DNA from: Bilabrum cf. latius
Taxonomy: Eukaryota
Assembly: GCA_965178125.1 (NCBI GenBank)
Contig: OZ237764.1
Span: forward strand, 496,001 to 560,000
Direction: 5' to 3'
DNA length: 64,000 nt
This document shows positions 2 through 64,000 of this stretch, piece after piece (the stretch's first letter is position 1; each line of letters starts with the position of its first letter). Position numbers and translations under genes: made by a program. The notes under the pieces were generated by a model, which saw only the letters and a list, made by a program, of their open reading frames with translations, was not told the origin of the DNA and did no database searches.

Positions 2-3000
2 CGCGTGCGGCAGTGCAGTGCAGCTTTGGTGCTGGACGCAGCGGGGGACGTGGACGTGTCACGCCTGCAGCGGGGATCGAACCTGGGCGGGACGCAGGGG
101 TCTGAACCTGAACCGCTCCTGTTGGCCCGGTGGGGCGGCGGCGCTGCATTCCTGGTCGCAAGACCCGGAGCCGCAGGATCATCATCCTCATCGTCATCCT
201 CATCGTCATCGCTCGGGAGCTCTGCAGGAGAGAGAGAAGCAATCGATGGGTCGGCGAGCTCCGCCTGGTGCTCCCCTCGACGGGCGGGGGCCTGGGTGTG
301 GTGCAGGGAGGGACGGGCCAGTGTGACGAGTGGCGGACAGCGGGGAAGGCAGGACCAAGGTGAGGGAGCCGGGTCGGGTGGCAGCGGAACCTCGTCGGGC
401 GCCGCGCAATCGATCGGAGGCGGTGGACTTGAATCGGTCGCCCGCGGGCAGGCAGAGCTCGCCGGGTCTGGACCGTCGTGCCCGGTTGCAACCACGTTCC
501 TCATGCCCGAGCACGGCAGCAGCAGGAACACCACCCACGGGAAGGCAGAGAATGCACCCGGAGGCCACCGCGAACGTTCGCCAGGGTTCGCCCAGCGGCA
601 CGTGGTGTGCGTGCTGCGGGGAGGCAGGAGCAGGCAGACCGTGTTCGTGGCAGCCGACGGGGCCGGATACCCGGAGCCGAAAACATCCCAGCAGCCCGTG
701 GTGCTGTCTAGCCCCCTGCCCCTTTGCATGGTATGGGGAGCCGTGGCGATGGAGGCCTGGAGGTGCGGCGAGGCAGGGTTGGCACGGCGCGCGGCGATGC
801 GGGCGGCGGCGCCCTTCCTTCTGGTGGGTCCCCCGCGACCTTCACTCTCCGCAGTAACCGCCGGGGCGCAGCTCGCGCTGTCGGCGGGGCTGGTGCAGCG
901 CACTGCGGCGCAGATCGCCAGCTAGCTGCCCTGGTGGCTGATCGTGCTGTCTGCCACGGCGGAGGGCGGGGCCGCCATCGGCTCCGGGATCGGCGAGGCC
1001 GGCCTGGGTCTACCGGGCGGGGGGACAGCGGGCGCAGCGTGGGAGTCGCAGTCGGGCGCGAGGCATCGCCTGGAGGCGGAAGAGGACGTCAAGACCAAAT
1101 GGAGGTGGGACGCCTGGGACTCTGACCGGGCTGGCTGGGGAACAAGAGGGCCGGCGGTGCACCCGCAGCTGGGGTACCACTCCGGCGCCCTGGCGCAGCC
1201 CATTAATCGCACTCGTCACACCGTCGATCTCACCCGGGCCCAGGGACCCTACGTCGACCCGCCCATCGGCGGGTACCCCGGGCCTGCCCCGGCGGAGAGT
1301 GATGGTCGTCATGGTCAGTCGTCCCCCACGGACCGCAGGCGTGTGGGTCTGCCCGCCCACGCCCCGACGAACCACAGGGGATGGGCCGCCAGCGCGCGCA
1401 GGCTCCATCGGTGGTACACGGGGTCGTGGTCCCATGCCCAGCGGCCTGTGCGAGCAGACGGGGGTCCCGCCTCTGCGGCGGAGGCCTCCCGACTCGCTGG
1501 AATGTCGCCCGCGGCGCGATTCGCCGCCGCCGCCTGTCGGCGGTGCGCCACGGCGGCTGCCGCGCTCGAGGCGGCGGCTCTGGGCCTCGCACCCACCGCT
1601 GGGGAACAAGCCCTCGCCGCGCTGGTCACTGCAGCCACGCCGCTCCTCGCGATCGGGTCCTAGGAGAGTGTGACGAGTGCGCTGCTGCAGCCGTGCCTGC
1701 GGGCGTGGGCGGCGGTGGGCTCCCTGGCCCGGGACACGCTGCAGTTCAGTGCACGCGGGAGGTCGCAGGTGCTGCGCGCTATGGTCGCACGGCTTGGTCT
1801 GCTGGTGGCGCACGCGAGCGCTGGGTAGGGCCTGTCTGGCGCGTCTGGGGGCGGGGCGGGTGCAGCTCTCGCGCGTTGGCAGAGAGAGGTTGCGACCGGC
1901 GGTGCGGGTGCAGGCGTGGGATCGGATCAGCTGCCCCGCGGTGCCTCTGGCCCTGCTGGACTGAGCCTCGTCCGCGGCGGCGATGAGATCGGATCAGCAT
2001 CCCAATCCACCGGTGGATTGCTCGGCCTGCTGCCGCCTGCCATGCAGGTGGTGAGCTGCGCCCCGGCGCCGCGCACCTCCTGGGCGCTGGGCTGGGTGGC
2101 GGGAGAGGGCGGCTTCTCGGCGGGCGACGGGGTCTTTGGGAGGAGGACGGCTGCCGTGGGAGGGAGTGTAGGTCTCCAAGGCGGTGGCGGGCGTCACTCG
2201 AGCGGCGGTTACGCGCTTGGGCAGTCCGAGTCCTGGGCCACTGCGCTGGGGCTCGTGTGGGCCGCGGCCGTCCCCGGCGTGACGAGTGCGGCGACCGGGG
2301 CGGGCGCCGTGTCGCGGTCGGCGTCCTTGAGGGGCTGCGGGGCGCCGCTCCTTCTGGACGCCGCCGGGGAGGGTGTGACGAGTGTGGGCACGCTGACGGA
2401 GGCGGTGAATCTGATGGCGGATCGAACGGGTGTCGTGGAAGATCGGATCAAGCCTGCCTCCGAGGGTCAGGGCGACGGGGACGGCGAGGAGGCGGGTGCA
2501 GTAGCTGGGGGAGGGGGCACCCCTGGTTCCGCTGGGCCCTGGACCTTCGAGTCCGGCGCCGCACAGATGCTGCTGGCGGCTGCGTCGGTTGCCGGCGTGA
2601 CGACTCCCCACGGGGACGTGAGGCGAAGGGAGGGTTGGTCCAAGCTGAGGGAGCTGGCTGCCACCAGCATGCTTGCTGCAGCGGTGCGGCGATGCATAGG
2701 GGTGGGCGGTGCTCCAGATGCATCGCATGCGGGTGTGGAGGTGGCAGCGGGCGGCGCTTCTGCTGGTGCTGCTGGTGCTGCTGGTGCTGGTGCTGCTGGT
2801 GCTGGTGCTGCTGGTGCTGGTGGTGTATGTAGTCCAGGCGAGGCGTGGGGGGCCGTCAGGGCACTCCTGTGGACGGCGACTGGCCTATAGGCGCGGGCTG
2901 CGGAGGCGCTGACGAGTGCAAGGCCGGCCATGGAGGAGGATGCCAAGGGCGGTAAGAAAGGGGGCAAGGGGAAGCCGCCAAAGGGGAAAGACAAGGGGAA

Positions 3001-6000
3001 GGGCAAGAAGGGTGCCAAAGGGGCTGCATCCTCAGAGGGGGATGGCGACGATGCGTCGACTATGGGCACTCATCACATGCGCAAGCTGCCCGCACCCGCC
3101 GACTAGATCGACCTCGGGTCAGCCGCACTGGCCGCATCGAGGTTCATGGCAGCACTCGCGGCGGCGTGTGCCGGCCATGCACCCACGCGCACCTAGGCTC
3201 AGGAGGTGCTTCAGGGCATGGTCAAAGGCGGGGTGCCAGTGATGCCCCCTTCCTCCGTTGATGATGGCGGCGATGGAGAAAGAGAGGGGACGACGGGCGA
3301 GGATGGTGTGACGAGCGGAGCGGGGTCGCTGTCTGCTCACTTGCAGCAGCTCATCGCGCTTGCGACCAGCCTGGGCATGGCCGATGGCTCAAACTCAACG
3401 GACACGCCAGGGTCCATCGGGCTCGTCGTCGCGGTCCGCGAGGCCGCCCAGTCCGCAGCCAAGACCGCCACATCGCCAGAGACATCCGATGCCCTCGGAC
3501 CGGCAGTTGGCGCATTCTTGGCTCTATCGGCCGAGATTGACCTGCTGCTCGCGGCTCCCTCCAGCGGAATGGGGGGAATATCGGCTCCGAATGGGCCCGG
3601 TGCGAGGGAAGGAGGCGTGAGCGGCAGTGCCAGCCCCCGCGCGGATTCAGGCTCCGGGTCTGTTCCCCAGATCAGCGCGCTGCCGCTGGAATAGGCCGGG
3701 CTCGCTGGCACAGGCGTATCGCACGGTGGTGGGCGCGGGCCCGGTGCGGGTCCCCGCAGTGCGCTGCACCTGGTGCTGGCCCTGGAGGCGCAGTCAGAGC
3801 CCGATTATCGGGTGGGTGCTTCGAGCGACCTCGCGCTTCAATCCAGGGAACAATTCGGGGGAGTTTCCCTGGACCCCCTGGGGGTGGGGGGTGCCCCCGA
3901 TGTGGGGTCTCTGTCTGACGCGGTGCTCGACGAGGAGGAAGAGGCCGGCATGGCAGACCTCCGCGATGCTCTAGAGCCAGCGGAGGAGCAGCCTGGAGGT
4001 GCACTGCACGACGGTGTGCGGTGGCCCCAGGTCATGGCGGCGTGCGGGCCCGGGCGGATCGGTCACGAGCAGAGGCAGGTGCTGCTGGCCATGGCCGGGA
4101 CTGCGCTCGCCTGCACCGAGCTGGCTGCCGACCGGGCCTGCCAGCTTGCCGCGCCTTGGAGGCACACGTGGCACCGCAATGCCGTGCAGCTGGGAACACC
4201 GGAACACCCAGGTGACCTGGAGGCGGCCTCGCTCCTCCGGCTCGCCCCCGACCGCCCCTCCGAAGCACTCGTCATACGGCCCGCGGCCGGTACATCTGCG
4301 GCACTGTAGTCTGCTAACCATGTCGGCTTGGCAGGATCGATCCCCCCTTAGGGCGATGGGGAGGGCAAGGAGACTGAATAGGAGACGGCGGAGGGGGGGA
4401 ACAAGCAAGGAGATTCGTAGGACCGTGCAGGCGGGGCCGACCAGCCCCACCGTGCACTCGTCATCAAGGAGGCACGCAGGGCCAGGATCAGCACAGCGAT
4501 GGCGTGCAAGACAGCGCTGCGCGCAGCATCGTGCGCTGCAGTCAGAGCGTGTGCCGCTGCAGCCCCCGACACAGCCGTTGCCGCGCTCGAGTCGGCCTCG
4601 AGGGCCGTGGCGGCTGCCTGGCTCTCGCCCACGGACTTTGTGCAAACATCCCAGCCCACTGGTACCGGCTAGGACGGATCCGGATCCGATCCACCGATGG
4701 ATTGGCGGCCGGTGTGGCATCTTGGTGTCGTTGCGGCTCGGCTGCTGGCGGAATCCAACCGCGCCGTGTCTGCATCGCACGGTTGTGCGGAGCTGGGCGG
4801 GGCACCCAGGACGGAGACCGGTGCCACGGCCAGGGAGGGCGCGGGCCGCGTGTTCGGTGATGCCACTGCGGCTGTGCGTGAGGACCGTGCGGTGGGCGGG
4901 CACGGTGCCGGATTCTCGTCCTCTGGCGATCTGTCTGGTCTGCTTGGTGGTGTCGGCGTCGGCGATGTCGGTGAGCGAGGTGAGCTGGAGGAGGTGGAGG
5001 AGGACGAAGGGCTGGGGGACGGTGTCCAGGAAGACGACGCGCTTGAAGACGACCTGCTGGGCCCCGGCTGGGAGGACGGGGGGGAGGAGGCGAGTGCGAG
5101 GCTGGCCAGTGTGACGAGTGCGGAGGCGGTCGAGCGCGCGGTGGGCGACTCCAGGGGAGGGGGCATGGAGGCGGGGGCGCGGGCGTGGGAGGACGGGGGC
5201 ACCCCGGGCGACGGCTCCGTGGGGGTGCCCCCCTTCGGTTTGTTCCCCGGGTCCGGAGCCGGGGGCGGCCCTGCGGTGCGGCTGTCGGCTCAGTAGGCTC
5301 GCGCCTGCGGTGAGATGGCGCAGTTTGCTGCCGCGGCGCTGTCGGCGGCGGGCGCGCACAGGCACGCTGCGACTTTGGCCACCTTTTTGCTGTCGTCCTC
5401 GCCCTCTGCCTCGCTGGGCAGCGGGGCGTGGGGTCCGATGCCCGGCGGCGGTCCCTGGTCTGGAGCCGGCGCTCGTTCACCCGGGGATGGCGCGCTCGGG
5501 GCCGGACTCAAGCAGGCCTCCAGCGCGGTTGCAACCGCAGGAGGGGCGGACAAAGACGCCGCGCGGAACAGTCGGCTGGGCCCCACCCGCGCCCGCGATG
5601 CCGCCTCGCTGCACCGAGCAGCCGAGGAGGAGGCCAAGCTGGCCCAGGGAGCTCTCGCCCAGCGGGGCGCTTCGGCCGCCGCGAGGTCGGCTGTGGAGTC
5701 GCTTGCGGTTGCGCTGGTGCACGGGCGTGGGTCCGCGGAATTGCTCGCTCAGAGGGCGGAGAGGCGGCTCGCCGCTCGATTCAGGGCACTGCAGGAAGCG
5801 GTGCAAGAGTACAACCAGCGGCCCAGCGTGATGGAGAGGAGGCGGAGAGCGAGGGCCTCGATGCGTGCGGGGGGCAGGCCGGCGGGCATGGAGGCCAAGG
5901 AGGAGGTGGAGTGGAGGTTCCGCAGGAGATGGCTTGCGCGGCGCGTGGTGCGTGCCCGCGTGCTGGCACGGTCCGCGAGGTGGCGGGCCTCTGTGCTTTA

Positions 6001-9000
6001 GGCGGGCCTGCGGGCATCCAGCGGGGAGGGGGGTCCGGTGCCGGCGAGGGCAGCTGCTGCCAGGGGGCTGGGCCTGGCTTGGAGCCTGTGGAACGGTGGA
6101 GCCGCGAGGGATGTGACGAGGAGGCCGGGCGCAGGCACCCTCGGATCGGCAGGTGCTGATCTGTGGGGGCGTGCCGCCTGGGAGCTGGGGGAAGCGGCCC
6201 TTGAAGAGGAACACAAGGGGGCTAGGCTCCTGCTCGGTGACACAGGACACTCTTCTCTGTCGGCTCAGCTGCTGCCAGGGGGAGGGAAGGCAAAGGCCGT
6301 GGCAGGCCGCGGATCCACCGGTGGATTCGGTGCGATGGTGGACGGCGGGGGGGCGGGCTTGGATCAGGGGGCTGGGTCTGGCACAGCTGCCGTGAAACGC
6401 ATGCGGGCTGCGGCCGGTGCGGCAGTGCGATGGGGCGGGGGTGCTGGGGAACAAGAGCAAGGGCAGGCGGCTCTGGCGCTGGCGCTGCTGCCGAAAGGCC
6501 GTCTGGGTCGGCTGGCCGCAGCAGATCGCGCCGCGCTGGAGGAGGAGGAGAACGACATGGCCCTTGTTCCCTACAGTGGCGGCGGTGACGGGGAGTTGCC
6601 TGACGGTCTGGAGCTCACCCGGACAGCAGGGGCCGATAGAATGCGCGGCAGTGCGGTGCAGGCGGGCCCACCGCAGCTGTGGCGCGCCTTGCAGGCGCAC
6701 AAGCTCTGCATCGCCGCGCTGCGGGAGCAGAGGTCCCTGCCGCTGCTGGTGCGGACCGCTGCCGGTGCGGCTGTGCTGGCGCTGTCGAGGGGGGGCCTAA
6801 GGGGTGCGGACTGGGCGCGGTTTTTCTGGGCCGAGGCGTTCGAGGGCGGCATGGCGGCGGGTGGAGTGGCCGAGGGCGGGGACGCCCTGTGGCGGGGACT
6901 CAGAGGACTGGCGCAATCGGGTGACGCGTTCGTTGGGGCCGCGGCGGCGGCGGAGGAGGAGGAGGACGATCCCAGGGAGGATGCCAGGGGGGGGCTTAAA
7001 GTGGCGGCGAGGGGGCGTGGGGGGGTGGAGGACGGTGCCATGCAGCAGTCCAACGGTGTGACGAGTGCGGCTGCGGCGGCGAGGCCGGGGCACTTGGACC
7101 GTCGAGGACTGGCACTGCCTGGCGCGCTGGCGGCCGCTGGGGCGCGGCTGCGGGAGGCGCTGGGCCCCGCGGGTGCGCTTGCCTGTGCCGGTGCTGCCGC
7201 CGCCCTGGCTTCCATGGGCGCCTCCTCCTCGGAGCGGGAAGGGCTGGACCCGGAGTCGCTCGAAAGCGAACGTTCGCTCGAGGACAGCGAACCCGCGGAC
7301 TGCTTCCTGCCAGAGGCACCCAGGGCGGGTCCATCGGGTGAGGGGGGGAGGAGGGGCCTGCGACTTGCCGCCATGCAGCTGCTGGCGGCTGCCGCTGGGG
7401 CGGAGGACGCGGGTCCCTGCCCGGACCCGGTTGCGACCTTCCTGTTCCCGGCGCTGGCCCACCTCGGAGTCCACGTGCCTGGCGGCCTGCCAGGGACATC
7501 CGGGCCGCTGGCACTGTTTGGGGCGGTGGGGGCGGACCCGATCGCGGAGTCGGAGGACCTTGTTCCCTCGAGCACCCTCTGGCCCGCCCTGCGAGCCGCT
7601 GCAGTGCAGTGCATCGGGGAGGGCCCCGTGTCCTGCGCAAGGGCCGCCCCCGGGGCCGGTGCTCTCCTCGTGGCTGCCGCACGGAGCCGGTGCCCATGGC
7701 GGGTGGCCGACGCACTCGTCACATCGGCCGACTGCGCACGGACTCTGGGCAGCGTGTCCGGCGCCATCGCAGCGCTGCAGGCCGTGTGCGAAGGAAAAGG
7801 CGCATCTTTGGCAAGCGATGCCTTCGGCGGGTCAGCGGCTGTGGCCTTCCCGCCGCACGGTGTGACGAGTGCGATGCTAGCGTACGACGACAGCCGTTCC
7901 CCGCTGCTGCCTGCAAACCGCATGGCACTGGCTCGGATCGCGGCTCTTGGGCGAGCGCTTGAGGCACAGTGCATTGCGGCGTTCGGCGGGAGTGCGGCAG
8001 GGACTGGCAGTGGCGGTGCTTCCGCTGGGGCAGCTGGTGCTGCTGGTGCCGGAGAGGGCGATGATGCCGATGTGAATGAATCGGGGACTAAGGACGAAGG
8101 TTCCGGTTTTGAGCGCTGGGATGCTGCTGGTGCGCTGGCAGCCGAGGCTGTGAGGTGGCGGTGGTGCGATGGGGGGGTGCAGGCGGGGGAGGGCTAGGAG
8201 GGGGGGGAGGGGGAGGAGGAGGATGCCAAGGGCGGTAAGAAAGGGGGCAAGGGGAAGCAGCCAAAGGGGAAAGACAAGGGCAAGGGCAAGGGCAAGAAGG
8301 GTGCGAAAGGGGGTGCATCCTCAGAGGGCGGTGGCGATGCTGCCAGCGGCAGACGCCCCGATGACAGCACACCCGGCGGGTGGGCCGCAAACCGGTTGCA
8401 ACCGAATACCGCCATCCTCCTCGGCCCCGAACTGTGCGCCCGCTGGATGAGTTCCCTGGGTCAGCTACTGCTCGCCGCCTGCAGGGCCTGCAACTTCGGA
8501 GGGTGTGACGAGGGCTTGGACGCGTGGGTGTGGGGAGCAGCAGAGGGGCCAAGGGCAAGGGCCAGAGCCTCGGATGGGTCCTCGAACTCAACGGATCTAT
8601 CAGCACCGTCGTCGCATGCGGGAAATGAGAAGGACACAGTGAACGATCATGGCGATGCATCGCGGCCGGATTCTCCCGCGTCCTCTTCCTCCTCAGCCCC
8701 CTGCCAGTGGTTCGAGTGGAGGAGGCAGCTGGCCGACGGCGCGTGCAGGGCGGCCGTGGCGGCGACCCGGATCTGCGCCGCTTGCAAGGATCCGAAATCG
8801 AATATGTGGGGGTCGGGCACCGCCAGCCAGGAGGCCACCGGGCTGTGCCTCGTGCACGCGTGCCTGCTGGCCAGCGAGGTGCATCGCACGATGGCGCGCT
8901 TCGCCGCCGCGGCTGCCTGGGCCGCCAGGGCACAGGCGGAACTCGACGAGGCCGACTCTAGCCCCCGGGAGTTCAGCGGGGTGGCACATGTTCCGCAGCG

Positions 9001-12000
9001 CGCGGCGCCGCTGTACCAGCACCCGCTGCTCGCGCACTTCCTGTCGCCGCCGCGGCCGCGGGCACCCGCCGGCTCAGGTGCATCGCACGATGGTGCCGCA
9101 GACAGCGGCAGGAACGACGACGCACCCACGGACAAGTCGGTTGCAACCTCCCTGCTCGCCGGCATGCGACCTTAGTGGGTGCTTGTTCCCTGGAGGGGTC
9201 CCCAGCTGCGTATCGCGTGCGCCGAATCCAGCGCACTAGCGGCCGTGCAGGCCGGCTCGCTAGAGACTGCGTCACGAGCGGTCGATGCCGGGCTGCGAGC
9301 GGCGCGGCTGTCCGGGCTGCCGTCTGGGGGTAGGAGGCTTCTGCTGCTGCGGGCAGAGGTGTCTGCCAGGCAGGGATCTGGGTGTGACGAGTGCTACGCG
9401 GCGCTCGCGGCGGCGGGGGCGCAGGGGCAGGTGGACGGCAGCACGGATCCCTCGGTGCTCGCGTCTGCGTGCGCCGCCGTTTCCGGCTCCGAGTCGTTGG
9501 GCGCGCGCCTGCCGCCGCTGCCCGTGGCTTCGTCCTCCTCCGCGGGCGACTCTGAGGAGGAGGACGACGCGGGTGCAGTGCACGCAGGCGCTGCCCCCGC
9601 GGGGCAGCAGCATCAGCGCCCGTCCTCCCGGACGATCGCGAGGCAGGCAGCCGAGGAAGCCATCCTCAGGAGGCTGGCGTGCATCAGGCGGGGCGAGGCG
9701 GCCGCACGGGCGGGCTTGTGCGAGGTGTTTGGGGCCTCCGCGGTGGGAGCGGTAGAGGGCTGGGGCGGCCCGCTGGCACCGGCCCTGGAGCTGCCGGGGA
9801 ACACCGACGAGGCCGGGCGGGCGGTGCACTCGTCACACCTGCCGTCGGGTGCGGGGATGGTGGATCCGGAGCCGCCGCTGGATGACGAGCATCCGATGGG
9901 CTGGCAGCCCAGGCCGCTGGGTAGCGTCCGTGTCGCTGCCGGCGCACTGTCCGGCTCCTGCGCGGGCCCGGTGGGCGTGCTGGCTCAGTCCGCCGCGTGC
10001 AGGTGCAGGTTGCTTCTCTCTCTCGCGGCCGAAAGCGAAGACGGTGCTGCCGAACAGGCCGCTCTGGCTATCCGGAATCAGAATGAGGCCGTGGACGTGG
10101 CGGAGGCAAGGGCGAGGGCAGCTTCCAGGGGGGAAGGGCAAGCACTCCTGCCCGGGGAGGAACCGCCCGCGATCGTGCCAGACCCGGTGCTGGCTGCCAG
10201 GGCACAGGCCGCGGTACGGGCGAGGGATCGTCACACCAAGCGGGCGACTGAACTGCTGCAGGCCGCGGAGGGCGCCGCGCATCGCGCCGTGCGGTGGTTC
10301 CGCTGCGCGGGCGAGTGCGGCGGTGCCAGCCCCGCGGTTGCAACCGCCCTCTTGCTGCTGGGAACGACCCGGAGCCGGAGGATCCGGCTGGCGATGGGCT
10401 TGGCCAGGCAGAAGCAACAAGCCACCAAGGGCACCTCACTCGTCACACCGGTCCCCCACCCCGGGTCCGACCCCCTGCCGGCATGGCGCGCGTGCGTGGC
10501 CGTGTGCTCCAGGGCCGGGCCTGGGGCCCTTCCCGCGTGGAGGGCCGCCCTAGGTGAGGCATCGGCGCATCTGTGCCTCCGATCGGTTTCGGCTCCGGGT
10601 CCCGAGGCCGGCAAGCGGCTCCGGGTTGGGGCGGCCTGCGCCATTGCCGCCGCCTCGGCCGTTTCGCGCGCGTGCCGCCGCTGGTTTGGACCCGCTTCCG
10701 GGGGCAGGGAGGACTTGGCATCCGTGGGCACGGGCGAGCTTGGGGACAGCACTCAAGGGATCGGGCATGCGGCCAATCCCGGAGAGGAAGGTGGCCAAAC
10801 CGGCGGGTCCTGGATGCGGGACGGATCCAGCGCCCCTGCTCTGCCCGAGTCAGCACTGGCCGCCGCGGACATGATCCGATCATGGGCGCGGGAGGCCGGT
10901 GTCCGGGCCGAGTACTCGGGAGCCGGAGCCAAAGCCACGGCCATCGCCGCGGAGGCGACGGAGAAAGCTGCTCTGGAAGCCAGGAGGGATCCGGTGGCGG
11001 TGGGGGGGGGCGGTGGGCAGCACGGTGGTGTGACGAGTGATACGGACGGTGCTTTGTCTCCTGCTTGGCCTCCATCGGTTGGTGTTCTCCAGCTTGCGGC
11101 GCAGTGGAGGCGGCTGGTGCACCAGACCGGCGGTGGGCTGACTGCCTCGGCGGAGGGCTGCCTGAGCACAGGCACCGAGAGCGCGGCCATTTTGGCGGCG
11201 TCTGGCGCTAGCACCGCTCAGACTGGGGGTACTTCCGACGGGGATGTCGCGGGTGCGGCTGTCTGGAACGGCGTTGGGTTGCAGGGGTTCGGTGCAGTGC
11301 TCAACGGCTCTATGAGGGCCCAGCCGGCCCTGGTATCGAGTGATTCTGGTGATGGTGCGGCGGGTGCAGCAAGCGGTGACGGTGCCGGCGATTCGGCAAG
11401 TGAAACAGGCTCGGATGCGGGCAGCGAGCAGCTGGCGGGAATCGTGCGGTGGCACAAGGCTGCGCTCTGGTCGCTCCGTGCCAACGCTGCTGACGTCACC
11501 AGCACGAGTGACGTCAGTGCCGGGGTCCCCCCCGAGAACGCAATCATGGTGGTGTGGCGGGAGGCGTCGCTGGCGGGCGAGACGCGAAGGTTCGTGAAGC
11601 TGGGGCAGGACCCGAACGGCAAGCCCGTGGGGAGGTGGGAGACGGCCCGCCCTATGGTGCTTGCGGCCACCCGCCTGCGCCCAATCTTCACACCGGGGGA
11701 CTCGACACACCCGGGGGCCGGCGATGCAAGCACTCGTCACACCAGTCGCTCGTCGTCGCCCAGGAGCGCGAGAAGCGGCATGTCCGCAAGCAAGGCCAAG
11801 GCCAAGGCCAAGGGCAAGGGGAAGGGGAAGGCCAAGAAACTGAATTCTCCACGCGGCAAGGGCAAGGGCAAGGGCGACGAGCGCGACGAGCCGGCCAAAC
11901 CGGAAGTACCCATGGAGCTGGTGTGTGAGTGCGGCCCGGCGGTTCTGCCTCAGTCCGCCGTGCAGCAAGCGCGAGAACTGGCGGCGGCTGCCGGGCAGGA

Positions 12001-12574
12001 GGCCGCGGCGGATGCATCGCACGGTAGCGCGGTGAGGCTGCTGGGGCTGGGCGGGAGCGATGCACACGATGGAACTGCTTCAGGAGAGGTATAGGAGAGT
12101 GATGGTCGTTCGGTTGGCCCTGTGACGAGCGCGCTGCTGGAGCCGAGGACTCAGTCCGCTGTGTCGTCCGTGCGCGGGCCGCTGGGCCGGGTGCTGTGTG
12201 CCGTGGGTGCGCAGGGCGGCAGCGGTGTGACGAGCGTGCTGGCTGCTCTAGCAGCATCCTCCGGACCGAAGACGGAGAGTGTCGTCGGAGATGACGGTGT
12301 GACGAGTGCGGCCAGCCGGCAAGGCAGCGCCCCAGCAGCCCTCGCGATGCGGGAGATAGCCTTGTTCTTCAGCGGGCCGGGGGCGAGGACCGGCGGGGCG
12401 CACGTGATTGGGGCGGGAGATATCAGCGATGGGGCTGGTGCAGGCGGGCAGGAAGAGGAGGGGAAGACCAGTGGCAGTGCACCCGAAGCGGAGGGTAGTG
12501 TCGTGAACAGCAGTCAATCAATGGCGGAGGCGCAGCAGCTGGCTGCAGGCGTGCTACTGTCGGGGTCAGGCTGA
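2..12574 (+). CDS. Giant Ala/Gly-rich hypothetical protein, 5'-partial, >4,190 aa when TAG is read as sense
   Basis: ORF-track segments 5..925, 944..1663, 1916..2890, 3206..3694, 3773..4309, 4697..5296, 5315..6001, 6038..8197, 8396..9175, 9179..12094 and 12122..12574 all share one frame. They are separated only by TAG (17 in-frame TAGs: 923, 1661, 1826, 2888, 3104, 3194, 3692, 4307, 4349, 4379, 4418, 4670, 5294, 5999, 8195, 9173, 12092). The first non-TAG stop is TGA 12572-12574, followed by AT-rich intergenic DNA. Helical Ala/Leu blocks alternate with low-complexity linkers and K/G-rich patches. No family confidently recognised. Confidence 0.8.
2760..2822 (+). repeat. Coding (GCT/GGT)n microsatellite encoding AGAAGAAG
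   Basis: Directly visible tgctggtgctgctggtgct... tract. Confidence 0.9.
2934..8340 (+). repeat. Dispersed intragenic duplication (~120 bp, copies at ~2934-3054 and ~8216-8340) encoding EEDAKGGKKGGKGKxPKGKDKGKGKKGAKGxASSEG
   Basis: Near-identical nucleotide strings GAGGAGGATGCCAAGGGCGGTAAGAAAGGGGGCAAGGGGAAGC...GCATCCTCAGAGGG at both sites. Confidence 0.9.
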
Positions 12575-35765: not shown

Positions 35766-35910
35766 TCACAGCTCTCTGTCACTGCCTTTCCATGTGCCGG
35801 ACCGCTGCTACTTGGTCTTGGCCTCCTGCGTTCTCCTCAGCCTCTCCTCCGCACCCTCGATCGCGCCACCTAGCCGGCCGGAGTGGTAGTCACGCATGGC
35901 CTGCACGATC

Positions 35911-35942
<32 letters not shown>

Positions 35943-41098: not shown

Positions 41099-41285
41099 CT
41101 TCGAAAGCCACACACGAGGTAGTGTGCCTCCGATAGAATTTCTGACTGGTGAAAATCAAGACTTCGTTTGGAACAGCACGTTACCATTTCTGGTCCTGGT
41201 GGCGTATGCATATTTATAACAAAATCACATTTTCGCCGCGCCCAAAGAACAACATTACGCTAGCCTTCGCGCCCGGCGCTGGAAT

Positions 41286-42715: not shown

Positions 42716-42799
42716 CGAACACCTTGCCGCGTACACTGCCGACGCGACCCAAAATGCAGAACGGATTCGTTGTGAATCTGCACGCAACAAATAGCGAAA

Positions 42800-50229: not shown

Positions 50230-51873
50230 TCACATAGTCTGGTACCCGTCCCAGTAAGCAAAAGCGTTCTCGAAACTGTGTCCCGGCTCTCCCTCAGGCC
50301 AGCCGTGACACGACCGCCAGGCTATTGAGAGCGTAGCCTGCTGGCGCAGGTAAACGATGTTTTTATCAATCTTCAGCGCCATTACCGTGGGCCGCATGTA
50401 GGACGTGTCGACGCTCCACAGGTACGCCCCGCTGTCCATGTCCACCAGAGCGAGATCTCCCGTGCGGTCGCACTCCTCCCCCGTGATGACGAGTGCGCAC
50501 TCCTGGGCCTTGCCCTGGGTTTCTGTCGCCCAGTTCTTGTCTCCGACATCAAATGTCCCCACCAGGTTGCAGTCGTCCTTTACTGTCAGAGAGGCTTTGC
50601 TGTTGCCCCCCTTCCGGAGCGACTGCCCCATGGCCAGCACCTGAGTGTCCCACAGAGTATGCCCCTGGGCGGCAGGTCGCTTAGCAAGCGCCTGGGGGTC
50701 GCAGCGAGGTACTATCCCGATGATGGCCTTCTACAGCGCCTTCGACTTGCGACCGTTGCCGTAGGTGTCGTCTTGGTCAGGACTTTCCAGATCCTTCGAC
50801 CCCGATGACCACACGATAGCACCTCCCTGCTAGTGCAGGACTGCATTCCCAGCCCCCTGCATACGAAGGGTGTCTGCACCCGGGTCCATCAGCGAGGCAG
50901 GCACCCGCCAGACGTACTGCCCGGAGGCGCTGTCCACGATGGCCAGGTCGCCCTTGGTGTCGCACCCGTCCCCTGTGATGACGAGTGCGCACTTTCCCTC
51001 AGTACCCTTGCCCCTCGTGTTAGTCGCAAATCGCGCTTCGTCCTCTCGGTACACCACCAGGTTGCAGTCTCCCTGCATGCGTAGCTCGAACCCCTCCCCC
51101 GCCCTCAAGGAGGCCCCGGGTCGCAGCGCCTGCCCCGGAGACAGCAAGTTGCCGCCGGTCACTTGTTGGTATGACGATTCCAGGACGCCTGCATCGCACT
51201 GCAGATTGTGCACGTCCTCCCGCACCTCCAGATCGAAGTGGAGGTACCCCGTACCGCTCACCACGTTATAATCATCTTTGGTGCTCCACAGCAGCTGCGC
51301 GCCTTCCTGAAGGAGGACGACATTGCCGTCCCCCTAGACCAGAAGCGTATCCACCTCTGGTGTGAAGATAGAAGATTGCACTCGCCAGAGGTACTTGCCC
51401 GTAACCGTGTCGATGATGGCCAGGTCTCCCTGCGTGCTGCACGATGCATCCGTCATGAGCAGCGCGCAGTGGTTGGCCTGTTCTGGTCGGTGCACGGCTA
51501 TCATTTCCTTGTCCGAGTCGCCAGTTATCTACAGGTAGCAGTCATACCGGAGCCACATTCTCGTCGAATCCTTGGTCAATGCATCATCGTATGAGTACTC
51601 GGCAGAATGCAGAATCTCGCCTCTCCGGAGCCTGTCGCCCTTTGCCGGCTTCCTCGCGGCCAAGGCGCTCACATCACAGGAGTACATGTCAATGTTGTCC
51701 TCGTTCAGGCGTGTAGTCCATACTTGGCCAAGATTGTTGCTGCTGCTGGTGTGGACCGAGACCGACGAAGAAGAGCCAGCACGAAGGTGCTGCTGGCCTG
51801 CTGCTCGACGCCCATGCACGCAGAGCGCCGAACAGGCGGCGAGAGCTACCAACACAGAAACGATTGATCGCAT
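50230..51873 (-). CDS. Secreted protein with three bulb-type (B/GNA) lectin-like domains, copy A (547 aa)
   Basis: Signal peptide MRSIVSVLVALAACSALCVHG; three repeats of L-x-x-G-x-x-L ... DC(N/Y)L ... C-A-L ... GDLA ... YxW; MQGDCNLVVY matches the QxDxNxVxY mannose-site consensus. TAG at 51529, 51334, 50830, 50731; TGA 50230-50232. Confidence 0.82.
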
Positions 51874-53687: not shown

Positions 53688-55358
53688 TCACTTATCTTGG
53701 AACTTGCCCCAGTAAGCAAACGCCTCCGTGAAACTGGATTCGGGCTTTCCCTCAGGGCTGTGGGATCCCTTGCCGGCATCCGACCGCCAGATTCGTGAGA
53801 GTGTAGCCTGCTGGCGCAGGGACAGTGTGTTGTCATATAGCTTCATCATCCTGGCCGTGGGCCGCATGTAGGACGTGTCGACGCTCCACAGGTACGCCCC
53901 GCTGTCCATGTCCACGAGAGCGAGATCTCCCACGCGGTCGCACTCCTCCCCTGTGATGACGAGTGCGCACTTCTGGGCCTTGCCCTGGGTATCCGACTTC
54001 CAGTTGATGTATCCGTCCCCGGCAGTCTCTACTAGGTTGCAGTCGTCCTTTACTGTCAGAGAGGCCTTGCTGTTGCCCCCCTTCCAGAGCGACTGCCCCA
54101 TGACCAGCACCCCGGAGTCCCACAGAGCTTGGCCCCGGGCGGCAGGTCGCTTGGCAAGCGCCTGGGGGTCGCAGCGAGGAGCCGTCCCTTCGATGGCTGC
54201 CTACAACGCCGCTGTCTTACGACCATTACCGAAGGTGTAGTCGAAGTCAGGACTAACCAGGTCCGCCGACCCAGATGACCACGCGATAGCACCTCCCTGC
54301 TGGAACAGGACTGCATTCCCCGCCCCCTACAGACGAAGGGTGTCTGCGCCCGGGTCCATCAGCGAGGTAGGAACCCGCCAGATGTACTGCCCGGAGGCGC
54401 TGTCCACGATGGCCAGGTCGCCCTTGGTATCGCACCCGTCCCCCGTGATGACGAGAGCGCACTTCCCCTCGGTACCCTTGCCCCTCGTGTAAGTCGAAAA
54501 TCGCGCTTTGCGCCCTAGGTGCACCACCAGGTTGCAGTCTCCCTACATGCGCAGCTCGACGCCATTCGCCCCCCCCACCCTCAAGGCGGCCCCGGCTCGC
54601 AGTACCTGCCCCGGAGACAGTACGTCACCGCCGGTCACTTGTTGGTACGACGATTGCAGGACCCTTGCATCGCATTGCAGACTGTGTATGTCCTCCCGCA
54701 CCTCCAGATTGAAGTGGAAGTACCCCTAACTGCTCGGCAAGTCCTTTTTTTGTTTGGTGCTCCACAGCAGCTGCGCGCCTTCCTGGAGGAGAACGGCATT
54801 ACCGTCCCCCTGGGCCAGAAATGTGTCCACCTCGGGTGTAAAGGCAGAGGATTGCACCCGCCAGAGGTACTTGCCCGTATCCGTGTCGATGATGGCCAGG
54901 TCTCCCTGCGTGCTGCACGACGCATCCGTCAAGAGCAGCGCGCAGTTGTGAGCATGCTCCTCACGGTTGCCCGAGGCGAACAATTCCGTCTGGCCCTTCC
55001 TATCGACGACCAAATTGCAGTCAGCCCGGAGCCACACCATCGTCGAATCTTTCGACAACGCATTACCGAGTGCGCCCACGGCGGAATGCAGAATCTCGCC
55101 TCTGCGGAGCCTGTCGCCCACTGCCGGCTTCTTTCTCGCGGCCAAGGCGCTGACGTCGCAGGAATATGTGTCAAGTTTGTCAAGGTCGAGGTGTGCCGAC
55201 TGGATACCGCGGCTCTGATGCCTGCTGCTGGCGTGGACCGAGGCCGACGACGTAGAGCCAGCGCTGCGAAGGTGCTGCTACCCTCTTCTTCGTCGCCCGT
55301 GCACACTGACCGCCGAAAAGGTGGCAAGAACCACTAAAATAGTAACGATAGATCGCAT
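53688..55358 (-). CDS. Secreted protein with three bulb-type lectin-like domains, copy B (556 aa)
   Basis: Signal peptide MRSIVTILVVLATFSAVSVHG; colinear with copy A. TAG at 55278, 54726, 54543, 54327, 54201; TGA 53688-53690. Confidence 0.82.
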
Positions 55359-56340: not shown

Positions 56341-58985
56341 TTACTTGCCCAGCTTCGGAGCTGGCTTCTCCCATTGGCTCTTGCCGGTTTCCGTGTTGTA
56401 GTAGTACGCATAGCCCTCAGGTGTGTGAGCCGTCACCCATTGCTCGTCAAAGCCACCCTGCTACTCCTCCGAGGCATGCTTCTTCGTTGCCTAATGGCTC
56501 CGAGTTGAGACCCATCCTCTCTGCTCCACTTCCAGCACCTCGTGGCACAACAAGCGCAGTCGCGTATCGAGCTCCCCTGTTCTCTGAAGCTACTCCATAA
56601 CCTCGAGTACCCTAGGCATGAACGGCTTGTACTTGTAGTTCTTCTCCACTGCTATACTTTCGAATCTCGAGAAAGCTCCACCCACCCGGAGCGCCAGCGT
56701 GCATAGGCACTCGACGCTCAGCGTATTTGGAGACTCATCTGCCTGCTTGGCAGCATCAAGCGAGGCATTCGACAGTGGACCCAGCAAGAGGTGCTTGAGG
56801 CATACCATGATGATGGTTGGCGGCAGCACTCTCTGCAGGAAGATGTGTCCGATAAACGATGTACTGCTCAGCACACTCTTCTTGATCTCAGCTAGCTCAG
56901 CTGCCCGCTCTGTCCTCCTCTGCTCGAGCCGGTCTCTCAGCTGCCTGGTCAGCGTGCCATCCCTTAGGGCGTCATGCAGCTCTGTATCGTCCTCGCGCCG
57001 AGCCTTCAAAAGTGCAGCAATCGAATCCTGTCGCTTGAACCCCTTCATCGTGCGGGCGCCAAGCACGTTTTGCAGTTGGCTCCGACGGATGCCCTCTGCC
57101 AGTGCGGATGCCTCGTCTGTGGCCCTGCTGCATTTGACTGGTGGTGGAGTCAGCTTATCTCCAGACTGGTCAAAGTACCACCCTGGCTCCACTGGCATGC
57201 CCTTGAGCTGCTCCAGCTCCTCCTGTAGCAGCTCGATGGTACCTTCGTACGTGGTCTTGCCGTTGACGAGGTCAGCCACCTGCTTGTATGGGGACATGCC
57301 CTTCACAGTCGTTTCAATTGCGCCGCTGCTTGTGCTCGCACCAGCGCCAGTACCTGCACCTGGCCCTGCACCTGCTCCCAAGGCCGCTCCAGTGTCAGTA
57401 CCTACACCTGGCCCTGCAACTGCTCCCAAGGCCGCTCCAGTGTCAGTACCTCCCATATGAGTCGTGGCTAGGGCACCAGTCTGCTCCTAGATGGCGGCCT
57501 GGATTTTGCTGGCATGTCTTGCAGCCATCACAGCGAGCTCCATCTTGTCCTTCCTCGCCTCTAGGGCCTCCATCAGGGTCTAGACGGCCGACATTCGGGT
57601 CTGCTACAAGGCTTTACTAATCTTTGCCTCCTCTTCAGATACAAAAAGGGGCTTGACAAACCCCTTGGCCCAATTCATGGCCATAGGTTTGATGTTACGG
57701 AGAAGAACAGCGATGGCTTCCTGACGGTGCTCATCCAATAGGGCCTTCTTGATGATGAGGTCCACGATCGTCAACAACACACTGTAGGACTTGACCTCAA
57801 GTCCCTTCATCTCCTTCACCATTTCGTGCCGGTTGCTGGCAGTAAGCCGATCGAGTAGGCTGGTGACTGTCGTGGCCGCCCGCTCGTGCTCATCCCCAGC
57901 ATGCTCGTCCTCACCCGGCACTTGGTCTACGCCGGCGTCTTGCCTGTTCTGCACGCGCTTGAGGCGGGCCACCAGCTGCACGCGATCTGCCTCCGAGAAT
58001 CGGTCGCGGTCATGCCGCCTGCCCTTGCCTCCCTTTCGTCCCTTCTTGTTCTCCTTGACCTGCTCGCGAGGAGCCAGTGAGTAGCCCAGAACGCCCGCGA
58101 CCAGCATGCCATCTGGCCCAAAGGAGGACCTGCTTGGAATACTAGTCATGGCCTTCCTAATTCCGAGCATCTGGGCAACTGTGAACTTGCCTGGCACGGA
58201 TGTCTCTTCCAGCAGCGGGTCAAAGCCGTCGAGGGCTGCCTCGCCCGTAGCTGTGCCTGGGTGCGCTCGGTGGATCGGACGAGGGGGGGAGGCGAAGTCG
58301 GTGCAACTTGAATAGCCTGCAGTGTAGCCTGGTGCGAAATGCTCCCGTGCCTCAGCCCCGGGCTGGGCGGAGGGAAAGAGAGCAGGTGCTGCCGGGGCAT
58401 CCGGATGTATTTGCTCCTTCTGCTGCGCGAAGCTTGGCGGGGCTGACGCTTGTGAATCAGTTGCATCTAGCAAACCATCCCTTTCTTGCTGCTTCTTTAT
58501 GGCCTCTGCAGCCCACTCCACCTCCTATCCGCTGCTGTACTGGATCTTGAAAACGCGACGTGGGCGCTGTGTTCTCGGAACGGGTCCCGCCCCTGCTTGC
58601 GACGTGGTCGATGCTACAGACAGCTATGGTCCGGGTACTATGCCTTGCGCCTACCACTACTAGTACGCGGGAGGCGCCTGGTGCCTGAACATGTAGTGGT
58701 GCTGTGGCACGGCACTGGCTGCGGTGATAAGCGACTAACGAAAGTGGTTAGATCCAATCCGGATATACCGCAGGTGTACGAATATCTCAGTAAACAAACA
58801 AATTCGGTCTTGCCTTGAGACAAGGGTCCCGCGAATCCTCCTAGACCAGGACTGCGAAAAGGAAGAGACAGGCAGCAATCTGAGCCAAATCTAGGTATCG
58901 TGGGAGAGTTAGGTAATTCAATCATCCATCCACATGGAAACACTAACAATTGTTGTTGAGAATGTTGGCGATTCGGGTTCATGTT
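56341..58985 (-). CDS. eIF4G-like MIF4G-domain protein with C-terminal WW domain (5' exons uncertain)
   Basis: VTSLLDRLT...IVDLIIKKALLD; FIGHIFLQRVLPPTIIMVCLKHLL; VECLCTL; LDTRLRLLCHEVLEVEQRGW; then QWVTAHTPEGYAYYYNTETGKSQWEKP. One frame runs from at least 58740 to TAA 56341-56343 with 10 or more TAGs. Confidence 0.75.
57355..57450 (-). repeat. 48-bp coding tandem repeat (GTDTGAALGAxAGPG x2)
   Basis: cacctggccctgca(c/a)ctgctcccaaggccgctccagtgtcagtacct repeated twice. Confidence 0.85.
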
Positions 58986-59542: not shown

Positions 59543-61550
59543 TCACGCCATCTCGCCCTCGACCTCCGCCGCGAAGAGCCTCCACTCCTCCTCCCGGGCC
59601 CTCTCCACTACTTCCGGTTTGAGCACCCCCAGCCAGCCCAGCATCCTCACGGCCCGCGACTGCAGGAATTCCACGTAATCTTCGTCCATGAAAAAGCTCT
59701 AGAAGTCGTGCCCGGGATCGACCCTGGGCCACCGGGGCAGGCCGGGGGTAAGCAGCCCCTTGCCTGCCGGTGCCGCACCCCCCTGCAATGCACCTCCAAC
59801 GGCAGCCGTGGCCCCCTTCGGTGCGCCCGCTGCAGAGCCCCCCTTCGGTGCACCCGCTGCAGAGCCCCGCAAGCTGCCCGTTGCAGGAGATGGCGGCTTT
59901 TCCTCGCCTGCGCCACTCGTCACACCAGCCTCCTCGAACAGCTCCAGCACCACGTTGCGCCAGGCCGGCGAATCCTCATCACCACCTTCCTTGTCGCCAT
60001 CACTCGTCACACCACTACCCTCCTGCAGCCCTCTAGCCCACGCCTCAAACGCCTCTTCGTCCTCCTTCCTCATCGCCTCAAAGCACACCTACAGTGCGCT
60101 CTGCCGCCCCTCTGAGCTCATCAGCATCAGCACCAGCTTCTCGGGCAGCCACTCCTCGGAGAAGTACGAGGCGAAATGGTGCAAGTAAACAGCCACCTGG
60201 GCCTGCTACTTGGTCTTAGAGGGGTGCATCAGCCGCTCCACGATGGACTGTGGGCTCGGGCCTGCGACAACGAACGAGTGCCGGTGACGCAGGTCGCGAA
60301 CGTACCTTTGCGAACTTTCACGAACCTTCCTGATCCCCGACCACGGTTTGCCGAAATTGCCCTTGGCCTCCACCGCGTCAGTGACCTCCTTGGTCGCAAA
60401 CCCGCTGCTCCTCCAGGGAACACAGCCCTTGGCTTCATCTCCCAGGAACGGCTGCCTGGCGCACCGCACTCCCATGCACCCAGCGAGCAGACTGAGGCTG
60501 ACGTTGGCACCATGCACGTCCGCATCTCCCGCAAGTTCGTGATCCCTTGCCCCCGTGTAGTACGCCTTGCTGGGCTCGGTAAAGGAGGATGCGAGGGCTT
60601 TTTCCTTCCACTCGTCCATCTTGCCGAGCAGGAAGTCCAGGACGGTCGCGCGGGCCCTCGTGACGGGGTCCTCGGCGCTATCGTGCGATGCACCCGCCCC
60701 GCTGCTGGCTGCAGAGGCGGCAGTACCTGCCGCACCCTTCGATGCCGATGCACTGCCGCTGCCGCTGCCGCCGCTGCTCGGCTTGGCTGCCGGGGGGTGG
60801 GTGTGGTGGGCTCCCTGGAGATTGGAGGCGCATTCGAGCACCGTCATGAATACCGCCACTTTGCGCGCGTGGCACTATTGCGCGCCCCTGCACATGAGGG
60901 CAAGCATGGACTCGGCCGTGATCGGATCGCCGGTTCTGCTCGCTCCATCGCCCTCGGTGCTCTCCGCAATGGCGAGCAGAGCAGCGTGGAGAATCGGCCG
61001 CTGCCACGCGCGCAGCTGCCTCTGCAGCTAGGGAACTTCTCTCTCTGGATAACCGCTTGCTATGCCAGGTACGCTCACCCTGTAGCGGATAGCAGGGGTT
61101 TCTGTTCCTGTGGCCTGAATCAGACGATTAACGGTTGTCGAGAACGGCTCCGATATTGGGTCCTCTGCAACCATGCGCTCGTACCGGGTAACGAGAGCCT
61201 GCACGCGGGAACTGCCTAATATTGCTTCGGAAATCTGCGACAAATTTTACGCGACAAGACTTGGAGATTGTGGTTTCATCTATCCAATTTCATTCTTCGC
61301 GATCTGGGCACCTCGAGACAGGCGACCACTCTGAAGCTGCCGATACCATAGACATTGCCAGTAGATACAATTGATCTTACGCAAATTTTATCCATTGCAG
61401 ATTTGAATGCCGGGATAGCCGCGCCTGGGGGCGCATCGATCCAAGACTCGAACAAATCGACGGATGCAGATCGAGCCAGCTTGGGTGGAGCAAGAGCGCT
61501 ACTAGCAGGTTTCTCAACTGATGCACACATACCCATAAACAGTACCACTG
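59543..61550 (-). CDS. Hypothetical protein (5' end uncertain)
   Basis: ORFs 61028..61243, 60206..60859 and 59699..60088 share a frame linked by TAG only and end ...EVEGEMA-TGA at 59543-59545. A probable intron ~61235-61380 joins the 61276..61548 frame. Confidence 0.6.
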
Positions 61551-61717: not shown

Positions 61718-64000
61718 TTAGTGCGATCCGCCCATGCCGCCTAGCGAGTCGAGAATCTCGCCCAGGCCATCCCAGCCTCGCTTGGCTTCCTTCCTGCCAG
61801 CCGCACTGGCAAGCCCGCCATCGTCATGACGGCCACCACCAACCCCGCTCTCCCTGCATGCATAGCTACCCATCAACACGTCAGATGCATCGGATGCAAC
61901 ATGTCCTCTGTAGGGACTGGCCGCCTCGCCCTCGCCAGCCGCTGCTCGTTGATACTGCCCAGCGGCTGCATCGCTCCCAGTCCTCCTCCGCTTCTTCCAG
62001 CGAGAGGATCCGTCCGAGTGGCGAGCGGCAGCCGTTCCAAGCTAGGCGAGCTCTAGGGGCAGGCTCCCCCCTAGAGCCCGGCCCCGAAATCCCCGGGCAA
62101 AACCAGAAGACAAGGAAGAGGCGGCGGATTCGTTCGAAGTAGACCGGTCCGGCGCGATGGATCCAGAGGCGGTGGCGGAGACGTCTGGTCTGGACCGCTT
62201 CTGGCCCAGCCCATTGGCACCCTTGGCTGCATTCACTTCCTTCTGGATGTAGTCGATCGACAGGAAGGTGCTTTCCAGTGACCTGGACACACTTGGTGTC
62301 GGCTTGGAGCTTGCGCCTGCTCTAGATCTAGATCCAGAGGTAGGCTTTGCATCTTTGCGGCTGGTCTTGGAAGACCGAGCCTTGACAGGCTCTCTCGTGG
62401 ACTTGACACTCGGGCCGACCTCTGCTTTGCTGCTAGCGAAACCGGCAGACTTGAGGCTGTCATCGGTAGACGACACATGAACACCGCCTGCTGCTGTCCC
62501 GTGACCGGCGACAGCCAGGCTGGCAGTTGCTGAGGAGGCGGCCGCTAGCTCGTCGTCAGCGCCGCGCCTGCTTCCCGACGTGCTACCACTATCCGATGTG
62601 ACGCACGTGTTTGCGCCATCGCCGAGACGGGCAATGCCTGTCGCTGCCGACAAGGCCGGTACCACTGCAGTCTAGGTTGCTGGAGCGCTCTTCTTTCGGT
62701 CGGAAGGTGCGCGCGAAACAGAGTGGCCTGCTTGTGTATCGTTCCTCCCCGTCTTTTTTTGCTTCCCACTCGTTTTCTGCCCTCCAATCAGCGGTGCAAA
62801 TGGAATCTCCGCCGCCTGGCGGTCTGGCTGCAACGGCTGGAACTCGGGGGTGGTGGCGGCGATGGCCGCAGCTGCCACCGCGACGGCTTCATTGGCCTTC
62901 TTGGCCGAATCGCTCGCGCTAGAACCGCTGGCAGAGGAACCATCGCTTCGTTCGCGCATGGCCCTCTGCAGGATCAAAGAGGCAGACAGCGGACCGCTGG
63001 CATTCGAGCTCGAGGCGGATGCACGAGCCGACCCCCCGCTGTCCCGCTTTCGACTGCTTGCAGCCATTCCACTAGACCTAGCACCCGCACCTACTCTGCT
63101 TCGTGTTGGACTGCCTCTGAGCTCAGAGTGCTTCGAAGGTCTGGCTCTAGGAGTGGCGGAGGCTGGCGTAGCGCGGGCTGTTCCCGGGGAGGACGGTGGC
63201 ACCGGTCGTGACGCAGCCGAGGCGGGGGTACGAGGCCCAGCGACGACCGGCACCGCCCTTGCTCTGGTCATGAGTCCTAGCTACAACTGAGCCTCAAGCC
63301 GTGTCAGCTTGCACTGCCTTGCAGCGTTCAGTGCCATCTGGGAGTGGAGCCCGATCTCGAGTGCGCTTGGCCTGTGCCCGGCTGTGAGGACGATCAGCTC
63401 CTTGAAGTGGAAGATGTAGCTCGATTCGAAGCTGACCGAGTCATTCACGGGACAAGGCTATACGGACTCAGTAGCGGTGGGCAAATCTGCCGAACTTGGC
63501 CGTTCGGCTGCGCTGGAACTCGCCATCGAACCAGCACAAGACGCTCGTCGGTCCCCTTTCCGAGTCCCATTTCTGGCCTTCTGTCTGACCGGACTGCCAG
63601 GAGAACTAGTGTCATCCTCCATGGGCGCCTATCCAGTGCTTTTCCCCAACGTCACTTGACCCTGATTGGTCCGAGTGTACGGGCGGGAAGGGCTTGCTTG
63701 ACTATTTGCGGACTGATCAGATGAGCCTGACTCGTTGGCATGAGCCTGCATCCGCCAGTGCCGGTGCCTAAACAGACCCAAAATCCACCTAATTCCCACC
63801 TCTGACACACCCTACTACCGCAGCCCTCGGGGCTCAAGGAACACGCGACACGGTGCCTCTGGGAGAGACGCTTCAATCCACAGCGCGGTGCCAAACCGAC
63901 CCTTGCTGCCCTCCAGCAGGAACTCGCGCAAGCGATCCCGGGCGGTAGCTGATACCCCAGGCAACGGCTGGATCGCATCGGCTTGACCTGCAGCACGAGA
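61718..64000 (-). CDS. Ser/Ala/Arg-rich hypothetical protein, 5'-partial
   Basis: A single frame is open from the window edge through 62672..63271 and 62042..62665 with only TAG interruptions; it ends ...GMGGSH-TAA at 61718-61720. Confidence 0.65.

Follow-up and report, generated by a model that had tools for sequence, protein, structure and literature searches.

The window described here comprises 64,000 nucleotides of DNA from Bilabrum cf. latius (NCBI GenBank assembly GCA_965178125.1, contig OZ237764.1, positions 496,001 to 560,000 of the forward strand); all coordinates are counted from its first letter. Its G+C (GC) content is 56–72%. Products assigned by Pfam are typical eukaryotic housekeeping and signalling proteins, and the introns of their genes are few. 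Long open reading frames (ORFs) were defined with TAA and TGA as the sole stops. Under this definition an in-frame TAG is carried by all of the Pfam-supported RIO2, thioredoxin, pirin, ankyrin, UBA3, G-alpha, B-lectin, MIF4G/WW and TIG genes. The meaning of these TAG codons is the subject of this report. The window very probably belongs to the nuclear genome of a protist, rich in GC and poor in introns, whose UAG no longer means stop but glutamine (Gln), with UGA (mainly) and UAA serving as terminators. This code had been proposed in a first-pass annotation made from the letters alone. The reading of UAG as a sense codon for Gln is now supported, with high confidence, by ORF statistics, RNA contigs that keep TAG, paralogues, alignments with solved structures and the proteins of relatives.

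In-frame stop triplets were counted in 17 coding segments totalling 15,894 codons. TAG occurs 95 times, TAA and TGA not once; with the count restricted to Pfam-supported genes, 46 TAGs were found in 8,670 codons. The first-pass annotation had described genes split by more than 80 TAGs and never by TAA or TGA, and this tally bears it out. Off-frame rates were taken from the two other frames of the same segments, where 16.2 TGA and about 2.1 TAA were counted per 1000 codons; at these rates about 257 TGA and 33 TAA (about 290 in total) would be expected in the codons surveyed. The rate of TAG is 5.8–6.0 per 1000 codons in frame versus 6.5 and 5.1 in the other two frames. TAG is thus as common in frame as out of frame and is under no in-frame selection, whereas TGA and TAA are wholly excluded. 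TAG makes up 95 of the 694 TAG, CAG and CAA codons (14%). If TAA stood to TAG as CAA stands to CAG, about 22 in-frame TAAs would be expected against the none observed. Both remaining stop codons, unused as sense, were found as terminators: UGA in 13 and UAA in three of 16 genes. The first-pass annotation had given 14 TGA and three TAA ends. TAG and CAG stand in similar nucleotide contexts, and no read-through signal or motif was found.

An ORF-length control was performed in which each stop codon was freed in turn and the longest ORFs of the window were compared. With TAG freed, the three longest ORFs grew from 1217, 972 and 808 to 4190, 3482 and 1472 amino acids. Freeing TAA left the longest ORFs unaltered. 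TGA is the most frequent stop triplet in GC-rich DNA, and freeing it merely gave more mid-sized ORFs. A metagenome scan with the UBA3 relative P0121 brought up, in place of that protein's own contig, two eukaryotic contigs with the standard code, L001 (31% GC) and L002 (58% GC), which were used as negative controls; freeing TAG had no effect on either, and the top ORFs of L002 stayed at 2043, 864 and 682. Chance is ruled out by this control. The individual codons to which the first-pass annotation had drawn attention in conserved genes were all recovered. They are the sixth codon of RIO2 (MKLDV-TAG), the codon eight residues past the catalytic Cys of UBA3 and the pirin segment HPHRG-TAG (in each case the first TAG listed for the gene in Table 1), together with three TAGs between MGLC and KLLLL in exon 1 of the G-alpha gene (42668–42670, 42647–42649 and 42629–42631). 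The minus strand from 42715 to 42593 reads MGLCVAKSAEQIAIE-TAG-QDAEIE-TAG-KNRHD-TAG-EVESSKIKLLLL. In this gene EVESSKIKLLLL is followed by GTAAGT...CAG and then by GAGESGKST, which identifies a canonical spliceosomal intron.

A search of sequencing runs returned eight holders of this DNA from four studies, and four of the runs (X5, X6, X7 and X8) were compared with the window over 29001–43000. None of the holders is recorded as RNA; X6–X8, from two studies, were taken to be RNA by a guess, and spliced contigs were found in all three. In contigs of X6, X7 and X8 eight segments are missing, each bordered by GT..AG, or by CT..AC where the gene is on the minus strand (Table 1), and these runs therefore hold spliced RNA of this organism. 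The same eight introns identify the contig as nuclear. One skip, 42253>42592, is exactly the G-alpha intron predicted from the DNA. The sizes of the GT–AG introns are about 72–338 nt. X5 provides an independent DNA contig that is colinear with the window over 10,434 bases (32405–42838), with no differences and no joints. At least 14 of the 18 exonic in-frame TAGs in the compared region lie within the RNA pieces listed, where no differences occur, and no differing letters were reported anywhere across 29001–43000. More than one organism appears to be represented in the runs, as in mixed communities or cultures. At pirin 36127–36222 the RNA-like runs hold contigs up to a depth of 905 that match about 75–95 bases of the conserved core and then diverge; these are probably pirin transcripts of other organisms in the same runs.

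The identity of the inserted residue was approached through aligned columns. The two B-lectin paralogues, A and B, are identical at 392 of 547 aligned residues (72%). Eight of their columns contain TAG: five pair TAG with CAG, one pairs TAG with TAG, one has GTC and one has ACG. CAG thus stands opposite TAG in five of the seven informative columns, and the GTC and ACG codons sit in diverged stretches. Two TAGs of lectin B (54543 and 54327; residues 272 and 344) align with the Gln of the sugar-binding motif in the solved structures 1xd6 and 3a0c in four of four cells; this Gln opens the motif QxDxNxVxY of bulb-type lectins. Among relatives, the first UBA3 TAG is matched by Gln in P0001 (98% identical) and P0002 (57%), both TAGs of the MIF4G gene that are covered by P0127 are matched by Gln, and TAGs of the 1472-codon gene are matched by Gln in P0124 and P0126. 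Altogether, Gln occupies six of the 15 relatives' cells opposite TAG, compared with a Gln frequency of about 4%. In the columns compared, TAG thus aligns preferentially with Gln. The predicted proteins of relatives are fragmentary, as is expected where a gene caller using the standard code meets in-frame stops; six of eight such fragments end exactly opposite a CAG of the query, one opposite GAG and one opposite AAA.

Several alternatives to a Gln-coding UAG were weighed. That the TAGs never reach the ribosome as UAG, being spliced out, edited in RNA (U to C), contained in pseudogenes or produced by assembly errors, is hardly credible: this is the usual meaning of in-frame stops, but no observation in its favour was found. 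The first-pass annotation had set its proposal against RNA reading CAG at these sites or splicing that removes them; instead, the spliced contigs of two studies carry TAG unaltered at the covered sites, which excludes editing and splicing there, and the introns detected are separate from the TAGs. The identity of X5 over its whole length speaks against assembly error. Pseudogenes would have gathered TGA and TAA as well, and the complete lack of both in frame excludes this reading. That UAG is sense and stands for another residue (Leu, Trp, Lys, Glu, Tyr or Ser), or for several, is very improbable, although a number of observations favour it and, together with some given in the next paragraph, weigh against the reading as Gln. 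The relatives' cells opposite TAG are not Gln in nine of 15 cases (two Leu, two Trp and one each of Lys, Val, Ala, Asn and Thr), mostly in poorly conserved stretches. In a wide alignment of UBA3 homologues the TAG column holds Leu in 56, Lys in 15 and Gln in 14 of 120 sequences, and the pirin TAG aligns with Phe or Ile in solved pirins. The relatives were moreover compared as proteins, and that their in-frame stops are TAG we infer. On the other side, no single residue apart from Gln occurs more than twice among the relatives' cells, the two closest UBA3 relatives have Gln, and the lectin paralogues, the bulb-type lectin motif and the breakpoints of the relatives' fragments all indicate Gln.

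The same balance extends to termination and to the decoding machinery. No tRNA was found by ARAGORN within the 64 kb window, Rfam gave no matches in it (neither tRNA nor rRNA), and eRF1 is not among the genes that it encodes, so that the machinery is unseen here. An ambiguous or transitional code would have UAG read as Gln inside genes and still terminating towards the 3' end of certain mRNAs, the situation of Condylostoma and karyorelicts, or of UAA in Blastocrithidia; alternatively, TAGs near gene ends would be fossil stops of genes that were extended after reassignment. In seven of the 14 TAG-bearing genes the last TAG lies only 8, 9, 11, 13, 23, 30 or 35 codons before the end of the ORF (Table 1), and in the 1472-codon gene the eight codons past the last TAG are AT-rich and score as non-coding (-0.43). 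The second UBA3 TAG coincides with the end of the homologue in two of the six inspected (Tribonema and Phaeomonas), and the UBA3 RNA contigs listed for three runs end at 40121, 40163 and 40182, short of the TGA at 40221; contig ends, however, are not transcript ends. When each gene's own TAG density is considered, the nearness of the last TAG to the gene end is no more than suggestive (Fisher p = 0.066). For the pooled tails past the last TAG (129 codons) the in-frame coding score is 0.20, compared with 0.14–0.50 for coding samples and -0.18 to -0.52 for five non-coding controls. TAGs near gene ends, once taken as proof of an ambiguous code, were downgraded on these two results. In the MIF4G gene the WW domain lies beyond the last TAG. 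The position-dependent stop/sense codes known so far use very short 3' untranslated regions (UTRs); the RNA contig of the small membrane-protein gene at 30 kb has a 3' UTR of at least 498 nt, which does not fit such a mechanism. An ambiguous or transitional code is thus unlikely, and UAG is taken to be mainly, perhaps wholly, a sense codon, with residual termination or fossil stops possible.

By analogy with other lineages, the decoder of UAG would be a tRNA-Gln whose anticodon is CUA and which probably arose from tRNA-Gln(CUG), and eRF1 would have lost efficient recognition of UAG, as in other lineages that use this code. A C-to-T change at CAG would then be synonymous, allowing TAG to spread through genes.

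The codon meanings found here, UAG for Gln with UAA and UGA as stops, are those of NCBI translation table 15. The code itself is already known, and what appears to be new is the lineage and the GC-rich setting. UAG alone is listed as Gln for Iotanema spirale, a fornicate, for Protocruzia tuzeti, a ciliate, and for two lineages of phyllopharyngean ciliates (PMC11687900). UAG alone is read as Leu in an uncultured rhizarian and as Ser in Scotinosphaera, a green alga. Elsewhere the meanings of UAA and UAG nearly always agree, and both (UAR) are read as Gln in many ciliates, ulvophycean green algae, Hexamita, Streblomastix and Amoeboaphelidium protococcarum (PMC11687900). Ambiguous stop/sense codes are described for Condylostoma magnum and karyorelict ciliates (10.1101/2022.04.12.488043). 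The window resembles Iotanema, Protocruzia and the phyllopharyngeans in that UAG is Gln, UAA and UGA are stops and the two UAR codons are uncoupled. It differs from them in its GC content, its long multi-gene contigs, its GT–AG introns and the stramenopile identity of its best named homologues. With the UAR = Gln codes it shares the change from stop to Gln, probably through a mutated tRNA-Gln anticodon, and the interchange of TAG and CAG by single transitions; UAA, by contrast, is not a sense codon here and ends three genes. The rhizarian and Scotinosphaera likewise uncouple UAG from UAA in a non-ciliate nuclear genome, but the residue here is Gln. In common with Condylostoma magnum and the karyorelicts, UAG may still end some genes. 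In contrast to these, the change is confined to UAG, while UGA and UAA act cleanly as stops and a long 3' UTR is present, and the evidence for termination at UAG is weak.

The affinities of the organism were examined through UBA3. The best species-labelled matches were Tribonema (51%), Phaeomonas (50%), Chrysophaeum (49%), a bicosoecid (49%) and oomycetes (46–47%), with fungal matches next at about 46–47%. A quick maximum-likelihood tree was calculated from 55 sequences of this one gene, including one bicosoecid sequence. The query groups with P0001, P0002, P0121, P0010, P0012, P0017 and P0022 in a clade of eight sequences with 99% support in the Shimodaira–Hasegawa-like approximate likelihood-ratio test (SH-aLRT), and this clade adjoins named stramenopiles with weak support (81–89). 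The earlier suggestion of a bicosoecid-like stramenopile is thus upheld in that the best named matches are stramenopiles, and not in that the query does not group with the bicosoecid sequence. By composition and UBA3 placement the organism is neither a ciliate nor a metamonad. The start of P0121 looks like intron read-through at the position of the window intron 38871>38964. The proteins P0010, P0012, P0017 and P0022 are full-length and uninterrupted, from which these relatives probably use the standard code. P0001, by contrast, and relatives' fragments of the two other genes searched break at Gln positions, and such breaks suggest that the reassignment is shared by a clade and is not confined to one strain. 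Full-text searches of literature lying mostly outside subscription journals brought up no nuclear code change in stramenopiles, so that a prior description is possible.

On these grounds we propose, tentatively and stopping just short of calling it probable, an independent and undescribed origin of a code in which UAG alone became Gln, in a deep GC-rich lineage beside or within the stramenopiles. It would be the first nuclear code change there, would be shared by a clade of relatives and would have arisen under GC pressure. It may have been caught in transition, with the TAGs near gene ends being fossil stops or UAG still terminating in some contexts. Under such pressure the codon is not a rare one, and this speaks against simple codon capture.

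Known UAR reassignments come mostly from AT-rich genomes. In a GC-rich genome TAG should be a well-used stop, and a UAG reassignment at 56–72% GC therefore bears on the theories of code change, namely codon capture, an ambiguous intermediate and change in tRNA or release factor, and provides a test of them. Reassignments of nuclear stop codons are rare, and the uncoupling of UAG from UAA is rarer still, with a handful of cases listed (PMC11687900). The finding is of high interest for the evolution of the code. It also matters for the annotation of this clade: gene callers using the standard code fragment the genes of this organism, and the database proteins of relatives are visibly cut at Gln positions, so that metagenomic and genomic annotation of the clade will be systematically wrong until the code is set.

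Table 1. Genes, introns and TAG codons in the window (positions in window coordinates; TAG codons are in frame)
Feature	Position	Strand	Details
Giant ORF, 5' end open	2..12574	+	4190 codons, 17 TAG, TGA end, no Pfam family
Giant IPT/TIG-domain membrane-protein gene	14057..24169	+	3370 codons, 9 TAG, TAA end
Full ORF around the IPT/TIG gene	13721–24169	+	3482 codons, 10 TAG
Gene, no family assigned	24411..28829	-	1472 codons, 19 TAG, TGA end
Small membrane-protein gene, spliced RNA contig	29936..31427	+	intron 30041–30219; TAG 30237–30239; TGA 30927–30929
RIO2 kinase (RIO1 + Rio2_N)	31554..34010	-	TAG 33993–33995, 32214–32216, 31584–31586; TGA end
Thioredoxin-domain gene, last exon	34497..35639	+	intron 34380–34496; TAG starts 34698, 35016, 35295, 35346, 35601; TGA end
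Pirin, last exon	35766..36893	-	intron 36895–36989; TAG 36771–36773, 35808–35810; TGA end
Ankyrin-repeat gene, last exon	37336..38104	-	introns 38106–38191, 38249–38335; TAG 38002–38004, 37429–37431; TGA end
UBA3 (NEDD8 E1 catalytic subunit; ThiF + E2_bind), last exon	38964..40223	+	TAG 39450–39452, 40113–40115; TGA end
UBA3 introns	38718–38806, 38872–38963	+	
G-alpha gene	41286..42715	-	Pfam E = 2e-106; TGA end
G-alpha exon 1	42593–42715	-	three TAGs
G-alpha intron	about 42254–42592	-	GTAAGT..CAG
G-alpha exon 2	41289–42253	-	0 TAG
BNR/sortilin-like gene	44124..46544	+	806 codons, 0 TAG, 30 CAG/CAA, TGA end
B-lectin gene A	50230..51873	-	4 TAG, starting 51529, 51334, 50830, 50731
B-lectin gene B	53688..55358	-	5 TAG, starting 55278, 54726, 54543, 54327, 54201
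MIF4G + WW domain gene	56341..58689	-	782 codons, 11 TAG, TAA end; WW domain past last TAG
ORF, no family assigned	59543..61246	-	567 codons, 5 TAG, TGA end
ORF, no family assigned, runs off window	61718..64000	-	760 codons, 7 TAG, TAA end
Last TAGs near gene ends	24438, 31584, 35601, 35808, 37429, 40113, 24095		
Segments skipped in RNA contigs, 1–4	30040>30220, 34379>34497, 36894>36990, 38105>38192		
Segments skipped in RNA contigs, 5–8	38248>38336, 38717>38807, 38871>38964, 42253>42592		

Some features of the gene complement were recorded in addition. The GC content drops near 12.6 kb, from about 0.70–0.72 at 1–12 kb, where the giant low-complexity ORF lies, to 0.56–0.65 in the remainder; TAG usage is similar on either side of this step. 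The minus-strand ORF of 1472 codons contains a perfect microsatellite, (TAGGTC)10, at 26116–26175, which is read there as (Thr-TAG)n and supplies nine of the 95 TAGs. This repeat places stop triplets midway in a gene whose sequence to either side is conserved in relatives.

The BNR/sortilin-like gene has no TAG among its 30 Gln codons. At a TAG share of 14% this has a chance of about 1%, which is not significant when 16 genes are allowed for; it could come from biased codon use in a highly expressed gene, or the gene could have been acquired recently. A segmental duplication spans 44124–46544, 50230–51873, 52539–53243 and 53688–55358, and between the two B-lectin paralogues the C-terminal part of the BNR/sortilin-like gene recurs in truncated form (52539–53243). 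A 314-codon ORF to which Pfam assigns no family (42776–43717) contains a 153 bp tandem duplication at 43130–43435 (99% match). Many contigs of several runs end loose at 42809–42811, like the edge of a dispersed repeat or mobile element.

A recurrent GVTS peptide was at one point ascribed to the palindrome TGACGTCA. This was rejected, as the palindrome has only four copies; the source is a different 12-mer, GTGTGACGAGTG, which is strongly over-represented, with a wider consensus of about RGTGTGACGAGTGC and copies spanning 321–60012. With up to one mismatch and on both strands, 42 matches were found compared with 0.34 expected from shuffles, and 33 of the 42 lie in 1–23 kb. The 12-mer was not found in the control contigs L001 and L002, and a literature search for it returned primers only. 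Its 10-mer core has 31 exact copies, all inside ORFs, about 18 in sense and 13 in antisense orientation, and the flanks are unconserved. The sense reading is nearly always (G)VTS, because the other frame would give TGA. In RIO2, two copies with one mismatch lie within an RNA contig. The element looks like a motif iterated at the DNA level, of the HIP1, Chi or uptake-sequence kind, in a eukaryote.

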